Assembly: GCA_035299165.1 (NCBI GenBank)
Contig: DATGXF010001204.1
Location: forward strand, 1-32,038
Direction of reading: 5' to 3'
Origin: Candidatus Deferrimicrobium sp.
Lineage (GTDB): Bacteria > Acidobacteriota > Aminicenantia > UBA2199
Length of the DNA: 32,038 nucleotides
Below: the continuation of a report on this DNA, generated by a model with database tools
DNA letters: not shown here

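Follow-up and report, generated by a model that had tools for sequence, protein, structure and literature searches.

NRPS-1, NRPS-2, rSAM, and NRPS-3 are four consecutive genes on the forward strand, of which three encode NRPS subunits and one (rSAM) a B12-type radical SAM protein. NRPS-1 is contained only with its 3′ part (1–4353); frame 1 is open from base 1, and the gene runs off the window start. The preliminary description had treated it as a complete protein, which is herein corrected to a fragment. Its domain order is ..A-T-E-C, followed by a linker and a tail, with Pfam matches to AMP-binding, PP-binding, and two Condensation domains and with HHxxxD motifs mapped at aa 647 (E) and aa 1125 (C). 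The tail comes after the complete terminal C domain (Pfam, 988–1424 of 1450 aa) and consists of an acidic run plus F-G-F (EDEYENFGF-COOH, 4324–4350).

NRPS-2 (4377–25985) has a length of 7202 aa and, according to the ORF and the motif map, the architecture halfC-A-T-C-A-T-C-A-T-C-A-T-E-C-A-T-C-A-T-C-tail. The Stachelhaus codes of its A domains are, in sequential order, Thr, Ser-like, Thr, DAETTGEVTK, Gly-like, and Thr. It opens with a half-C (4377–5126), a condensation-like region of about 250 aa that comprises the C-lobe only and lacks HHxxxD. This region is the proposed socket of the NRPS-1 tail and carries the patch residues N70 (4584–4586) and R75 (4599–4601). On its other end, NRPS-2 contains a full terminal C domain, assigned from motifs and sequence (24579–25916, HHIITD at aa 6872), that has to catalyze condensation at the first T domain of NRPS-3, and the tail LEDQDDFGF-COOH (25956–25982).

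The start codon of the rSAM gene (25969–27705, 578 aa) overlaps the codons of the NRPS-2 tail. Its product, a putatively B12-binding (class B-type) radical SAM enzyme, harbors the cluster motif C286-x3-C290-x2-C293 (SCPNQCSFC, 26824–26847) and terminates with a flexible linker (aa ~560–569) and the tail IEEEGDFGF-COOH (27676–27702), which together span 27646–27702 as seen from translation and the AF2 model. NRPS-3 (27734–32038) is contained with its 5′ part, the gene running off the window end, and has the order halfC-A(DGTSTAEVMK, Tyr-like)-T-C-A... Its N-terminal half-C (27734–28519) is, on the basis of AF2, Foldseek, and covariation, the proposed joint socket for the tails of NRPS-2 and rSAM, with the patch residues N71 (27944–27946), R76 (27959–27961), I79 (27968–27970), and K140 (28151–28153). 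The first A-T pair follows at 28571–30280 (Pfam AMP-binding 280–626, AMP-binding_C 684–758, and PP-binding 786–849). Translation confirmed that the first three proteins end with AGEDEYENFGF, NILEDQDDFGF, and KIEEEGDFGF, respectively, each directly followed by a stop codon, as had been read from the sequence beforehand. From the domain orders of the three subunits, it follows that the assembly line is cut twice, each time between a complete C and the next A.

The rSAM protein meets the CxxxCxxC requirement of its superfamily: C286, C290, and C293 are retained without exception in 25 homologs, and Pfam Radical_SAM is matched above the cut-off (E=5e-14). The Pfam B12-binding match is weak (18.6 bits, under the cut-off of 32.1); PF02310 is precomputed for most homologs and is above the cut-off in fusion relatives. 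None of the curated NCBIfam models reaches its cut-off for rSAM, the best being TIGR03975 (96.9 vs 281.85 bits), and the nearest families are RiPP rSAM C-methyltransferases, BchE, and PhpK-type enzymes. In the AF2 model (pLDDT 89.7), a Rossmann domain with a large helical insertion is seen, and the last ~20 aa are a coil in which pLDDT drops from 66 to 48. Cobalamin rSAM enzymes, for the most part methylases, predominate among the top Foldseek matches (TMq 0.45–0.56); they include TsrM, MgmA, OxsB, TokK, and CysS at 12 to 14% identity. CysS and TokK were solved with pantetheinylated substrates. The cobalamin-binding rSAM class also holds the OxsB- and BchE-type enzymes with nonmethylase chemistry.

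More than 1500 rSAM homologs are detectable, and a full HMMER scan yields 1142 clusters at 50% identity (E<=1e-30). Where named, their sources are Aminicenantes, Acidobacteria, Bacteroidales, and Bacillota MAGs. The closest 120 homologs, reaching down to 51% identity, end exactly in [FW]x[FLI] in 107 cases, and the motif lies inside the last 16 residues in 119 of them. Across homologs, the linker varies, in contrast to the conserved tail, which has the consensus D-[DE]-G-D-F-x-F. The preliminary description had envisaged a single tailoring enzyme that mimics its neighbor; the tail instead characterizes the rSAM family as a whole, and it is present on proteins of the Peptidase_U32 family and on other B12-rSAM types as well. 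One relative (P0002, 88% identical) is found in a related cluster, locus L159, with another NRPS arrangement (a 2592-aa upstream subunit), and both tails are kept.

The order of genes at tailed junctions was compared in 78 loci taken from one-genome-per-species contigs, with ORFs annotated by domain seeds from the window, and in a replication set of 80 JGI metagenome loci, which were reduced to 75 by removing near-duplicates. In the 78 loci, the strict tail ([FW]x[FLI]-COOH) is present on 70/96 C-ending subunits and 69/87 rSAMs, and it is found on only 1/36 T-ending and 0/4 E-ending subunits. The gene after a tailed C-ending subunit is an rSAM in 49 cases and directly a half-C subunit in 13; a tailed rSAM is followed by a half-C subunit in 56 cases. 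After tail-less T-ending subunits, the next protein starts with a full C domain in 18 cases. Seen from the receiving side, an upstream tail is present at 73/76 junctions leading into a half-C, and the rSAM tail is associated with a downstream half-C (107/130 vs 5/21, OR 14.9, p=2e-7). The full triplet recurs in 47/75 metagenome loci; hence, the co-occurrence of a tailed terminal-C subunit, an adjacent tailed rSAM, and a half-C subunit, which the preliminary description had named as a check, is borne out in two independent sets. Exceptions exist in the form of tail-less rSAMs in the same gene position (e.g., L050 and L059) and of two tailed rSAMs upstream of a full C (L051 and L060). The contig of L159 additionally contains a classical COM-like pair at an E/C junction, where one subunit ends with TPSDFGYKELSMEQLYSIFDE and the next reads MALKELTKENIKDIYTLSPMQEG. 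Because this contig uses a COM-like pair at E/C, the F-x-F tail is regarded as specific for the junction between C and half-C.

Neighboring tails resemble each other beyond the common motif. In 20/51 pairs, with 8.6 expected (p~1e-4), the rSAM tail has the same residue in its middle as the directly upstream NRPS tail, and the replication set gives 21/53 pairs, with 7.6 expected (p<5e-5). Upon shuffling within genomes (five multijunction genomes, 31 pairs), the observed BLOSUM sum of 597 compares with 443 (p<5e-5). Such matched tails on two unrelated proteins per junction are as predicted for a common binding partner.

The candidate for this partner is the half-C. Over 123 unique junctions, three tail positions (counted from the C terminus) covary with one patch of the half-C (NRPS-3 numbering, with residue 140 corresponding to 138 in the alignment). 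Tail position −2 is coupled to residue 71 with z 10.5: D/E occurs with K/R (19/33), G/A/V/C/S with N, and N/Q often with G. Tail position −5 is coupled to residue 76 with z 11.6, G being paired with R (64/67) and I/V with A/T/N/L. Tail position −3 is coupled to two residues, namely 140 (z 15.3), with F facing R/K (105/110) and W facing G/S/A (9/12), and 79 (z 10.7), with F mostly next to M and W mostly next to I. As judged from the sequences, the paired residues complement each other in charge and size. For tail position −1, no socket-specific covariation was detected (z 7.9 for the half-C vs 8.3 for the A-domain control). The best among 335 A-domain columns of the same proteins, used as a control for coinheritance, reach only z 4.3 to 5.5 for the three coupled positions; a contact-free covariation of coinherited neighboring genes would thereby be argued against, albeit not removed. 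The pairing of K/R71 with an acidic tail is seen again in the metagenome loci (OR 7.75, p=0.007). The code is loose, with 5/15 K/R71 sockets of the replication set receiving FGF-type tails only. The window junctions conform to it (G(−5)/R76, F(−3)/K140, and G(−2)/N71), and all three window tails match the consensus code for sockets of that type.

The covarying patch is contained in a motif found in half-Cs only, S-[N/K]-G-S-D-x-R. Herein, 95/123 half-Cs carry R/K at position 76, as opposed to 102/120 catalytic C-lobes with T, and S73 and D74 are conserved in the half-C and not in the catalytic C-lobes. The two half-Cs of the window are 46% identical to each other, and their alignment to full C domains is limited to residues ~188 to 458 at 22 to 28% identity, with that of NRPS-2 aligning to residues 171 to 445 of a full C domain. 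In the motif map, the first HHxxxD of NRPS-2 is found only at aa 1028 and that of NRPS-3 only at aa 992. The NRPS-3 half-C is modeled by AF2 with pLDDT 92.1 and is predicted to fold autonomously as a C-lobe. Foldseek relates it to many C domains (E 1e-17 to 1e-13, TMq 0.75–0.80) with about half of the target covered; the TMt of ~0.44 against stand-alone C domains reflects this half coverage. It consequently fits the C-lobe fold but not the definition of a C domain as a two-lobe pseudodimer with HHxxxDG. The model starts with two helices (4–16 and 18–28) and a coil before the C-lobe, and a β-hairpin module is absent. Residues 71 to 80 are located at a loop and the start of helix 74–93, and residue 140 in helix 132–148; that they form a single surface is unverified. 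The receptor role that had been assigned to the half-C beforehand is, hence, supported by tail covariation, by a conserved patch specific to half-Cs, and by natural rSAM–half-C fusions, in the absence of binding data.

These fusions are of several kinds. P0193 and P0197 are single-chain B12-rSAM-halfC-A-T proteins from which the F-x-F tail is absent; the covalent link would here stand in for docking. About 25 clusters of rSAM-C fusions (proteins of ~1100–1230 aa) retain a single tail at their distal end. Several loci contain a B12-rSAM unit inserted in cis, located either between the half-C and the A domain or ~100 aa inside the latter, in permuted order. Together, fusions and cis insertions place the rSAM at the module that is headed by the half-C. 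Natural C-tail-halfC fusions were sought in the 78 loci, and none was found.

The tail is not restricted to NRPS subunits and rSAM, yet it is scarce on unrelated neighboring proteins. It occurs on 10/243 other flanking ORFs, several or most of which are tailoring enzymes between rSAM and half-C, and on 7/23 non-NRPS ORFs of a second flank set; these figures serve as a proxy for the genome census by which the preliminary description would have judged the tail's specificity. Carriers between rSAM and half-C include Peptidase_U32-family proteins of ~390 aa in at least six loci; a tailed U32 protein is encoded, for example, at 11697–12899 of L023. The same gene position is taken by two other tailed B12-rSAM types, and a further carrier is a 373-aa protein with only weak, subthreshold PP-loop (tRNA_Me_trans/ATP_bind_3) Pfam matches. 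The U32 family includes UbiU/UbiV, oxygen-independent hydroxylases for which prephenate is the oxygen donor (PMC6747719, PMC10990095). Because U32 proteins and other B12-rSAM types carry it, the tail gives the impression of a tag by which oxygen-independent tailoring enzymes are recruited in general.

Building on the observed gene syntax, the matching of tails per junction, their covariation with the half-C, the half-C surface motif, the disordered tail, and the natural fusions, the following mechanism is proposed. The acidic-[D/E/N]-F-x-F-COOH tail would be a short linear docking motif, and the half-C, an autonomous condensation-domain C-lobe relic of ~250 aa without active site at the head of the next subunit, would be its socket; the pair would be employed wherever the assembly line splits between C and the following A. 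In the window, the NRPS-1 tail would bind to the NRPS-2 half-C (N70, R75), and the tails of both NRPS-2 and rSAM to the NRPS-3 half-C (N71, R76, I79, K140). This socket would put the terminal C domain of NRPS-2 and the B12-type rSAM near the first T domain of NRPS-3, where they probably bind in turn by weak contacts tethered through flexible linkers. The rSAM would then most likely modify the Tyr-like residue on this T domain, most probably by methylating an unactivated carbon, either prior to condensation or immediately thereafter. Taken as a whole, we regard tail–half-C docking with a shared socket and rSAM tailoring as the probable explanation; within it, the binding, the alternation, the T-tethered substrate, and the chemistry are inferred.

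The chemistry of rSAM is the weakest step. That the substrate is the T-bound aminoacyl or peptidyl group of the first NRPS-3 module is inferred from the rSAM-halfC-A-T fusions and the cis-inserted rSAM domains. In addition to NRPS-3 (DGTSTAEVMK), an A code of the DGT[CS]TAEVM type occurs in L001, L002, L005, and L014, where it follows the closest rSAM homologs. Over the family, the A-domain codes behind rSAM vary widely (Val, Asp/Asn, Gln/Glu, Phe, Tyr-like, Cys-like, and Ile-like), and comparing rSAM similarity with downstream or upstream A codes gave no useful signal outside orthologs (identity 0.30–0.33 vs 0.23–0.26). With substrates this varied and no correspondence between rSAM similarity and A code outside orthologs, substrate position and chemistry cannot be read from the sequence. 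A role of the tail itself as a substrate peptide of the RiPP or mycofactocin kind was dismissed, given that the tail is found on 7000-aa synthetases and tracks the junction type.

Docking by the tail would also be compatible with an rSAM that acts on a free amino acid or soluble precursor, which is subsequently activated by the A domain of NRPS-3 in a form of channeling. Some known cobalamin rSAM methylases do use soluble substrates, and the atypical Tyr-like code DGTSTAEVMK recurs after close rSAM homologs as if a modified amino acid were selected. We nevertheless consider this unlikely: the cis B12-rSAM units are embedded in A domains or placed between half-C and A, positions that house methyltransferase domains acting on T-bound aminoacyl groups; the pantetheinylated substrates in the structures of the neighbors CysS and TokK point the same way; and the tail is common to the upstream C domain, which has to reach the T domain. 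An rSAM docked next to a T-bound substrate is, hence, preferred. A different concern is whether the half-C is the partner at all, given that no binding data exist and that the covariation scan left out T-domain columns. The tail could bind the downstream first T or A domain or a PDZ- or MbtH-like scaffold or chaperone, with the half-C as a mere platform of the A domain; truncated C-like regions without docking role do exist before A domains, and the half-C matches the N terminus of Lys2-type α-aminoadipate reductase. Such a partner is quite improbable in light of the covariation, in which three tail positions couple to a contiguous half-C patch with z 10 to 15 as opposed to at most 5.5 in 335 A-domain columns, with pairings that appear complementary in charge and size and a patch conserved in half-Cs only. 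A common scaffold would furthermore not require the matching of tails per junction within a genome, and no recurrent extra gene was seen in the loci, for which no systematic survey was made. The external PDZ-type scaffold that the preliminary description had offered as an alternative is rejected because the tails are junction specific and covary with the half-C.

Least credible, and in our assessment close to ruled out, is a general cellular tag (a degron, a sorting or secretion signal, or an SSB-like hub-binding tail) that is independent of the order of the assembly line. The C terminus of SSB is an acidic-aromatic hub-binding tail, and an acidic run with an aromatic C terminus recalls such known examples; the tail frequency, moreover, was taken from flanking ORFs and not from the whole source genome. 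A general tag is difficult to reconcile with its restriction, in the same clusters, to C-ending subunits (70/96, against 1/36 T-ending and 0/4 E-ending), with its presence on only 10/243 and 7/23 non-NRPS flank ORFs, most of them tailoring enzymes between rSAM and half-C, and with its loss where rSAM is covalently fused to the half-C. The earlier interpretation of the tail as an assembly-line docking element is thus supported by comparison of sequences and extended to a widespread system, with physical binding, alternation, and the rSAM reaction remaining inferences.

On a larger scale, the data may describe an unrecognized plug-and-socket system of NRPSs, a reading toward which we lean slightly. 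Herein, a C-lobe hub would be time-shared by the upstream C domain and by tailed oxygen-independent tailoring enzymes, comprising several B12-rSAM families and putative U32-type hydroxylases. It would follow a readable code (tail −5/−3/−2 to socket 76/140+79/71, respectively) and range over many uncultured and anaerobic bacteria, including Aminicenantes, Acidobacteriota, Clostridia, Bacteroidales, Omnitrophota, and others. Complete genomes in which the system is present include those of Clostridium puniceum DSM 2619, Ruminiclostridium cellobioparum DSM 1351, and Wukongibacter sp. M2B1. In the literature, no description was found of the tail, of the half-C as a receptor, or of an NRPS-docked rSAM or U32 protein; as coverage is incomplete, prior work is possible. 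How subunits are ordered and how trans-acting tailoring enzymes are recruited are questions at the core of efforts to understand and engineer peptide natural products. If true, the system would constitute a fourth NRPS docking class, in which a tail of merely 5 to 8 residues meets a large, well-folded receptor, and it would act at the C/A junction, a split point favored in engineering schemes. The code could then be rewired so that subunits are reordered or selected residues receive radical tailoring. The system would, in addition, account for the delivery of cobalamin rSAM enzymes, and possibly of U32-type hydroxylases, to residues on carriers in anaerobes, whose NRPS products are, to our knowledge, almost unknown in their chemistry.

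Among enzymes, rSAM resembles the TokK/ThnK and CysS methylases and peptide C-methylases by combining an N-terminal, putatively B12-binding Rossmann domain with a CxxxCxxC rSAM barrel. It differs from the TokK/CysS class by an identity of only 12 to 14%, by scores far below the cut-off of curated models, and by the large helical insertion in the Rossmann domain. We know of no cobalamin rSAM methylase reported with a docking tail or fused to an NRPS domain. The related loci with a tailoring domain inside the A domain of the presumably modified residue's module are reminiscent of interrupted A domains, whose known inserts are class I SAM methyltransferases. In contrast, the insert here is an rSAM plus B12 unit of ~580 aa, and the window enzyme is free-standing and putatively docked by its tail.

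Among NRPS docking systems, only three classes are structurally characterized according to a review of 2021, namely the COM helix-hand, the PAX three-helix, and the SLiM-βHD type, the last being exemplified in NRPSs and PKS-NRPSs by TubC, EpoB, rhabdopeptide Kj12, and enacyloxin Bamb_5915 (PMC9113145). The system resembles SLiM-βHD, in which a disordered C-terminal motif of less than 15 residues meets a folded N-terminal receptor on the partner, one motif class is common to several kinds of enzymes, stand-alone catalytic proteins are recruited, and specificity arises from charge pairs and a hydrophobic face (PMC9113145). The tail meets the donor side of this definition with a core of 5 to 8 residues after a variable linker of ~15 to 20 aa. 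Unlike in SLiM-βHD, a 250-aa C-lobe that begins with two helices takes the place of the α-β-β-α-α β-hairpin docking domain as receptor, the junction is that of C and A, the motif ends in F-x-F-COOH, and the polarity is such that several tailed catalysts converge on one socket beside a carrier module.

As in the glycopeptide X-domain, a catalytically dead condensation-type domain within an NRPS would be used as a landing platform for trans-acting tailoring enzymes, and the X-domain structures 4tx3 and 4tx2 are among the Foldseek matches of the half-C. The X-domain, however, closes the last module, comprises both lobes of a full C/E-like domain, and binds a P450 surface rather than a C-terminal peptide. 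Here, the C-lobe alone is located at the subunit N terminus, it would also dock the upstream NRPS, and its ligands are terminal linear motifs on rSAM, U32, and C-domain proteins. With the COM system of Bacillus-type NRPSs, the pair has in common that matched donor and acceptor elements at the subunit ends fix the subunit order. COM is a helix-hand pair formed by an E-ending donor and the N terminus of a full C domain; in the system at hand, the donor is C-ending, the acceptor is half-C-A, and the donor motif is common to tailoring enzymes. With no β-hairpin module, no E-terminal donor, and no two-lobe X-domain, it is neither SLiM-βHD nor COM nor X-domain. As proposed, the system is a variant of NRPS docking and recruitment that is akin to SLiM-βHD and the X-domain without possessing the defining features of either or of COM.

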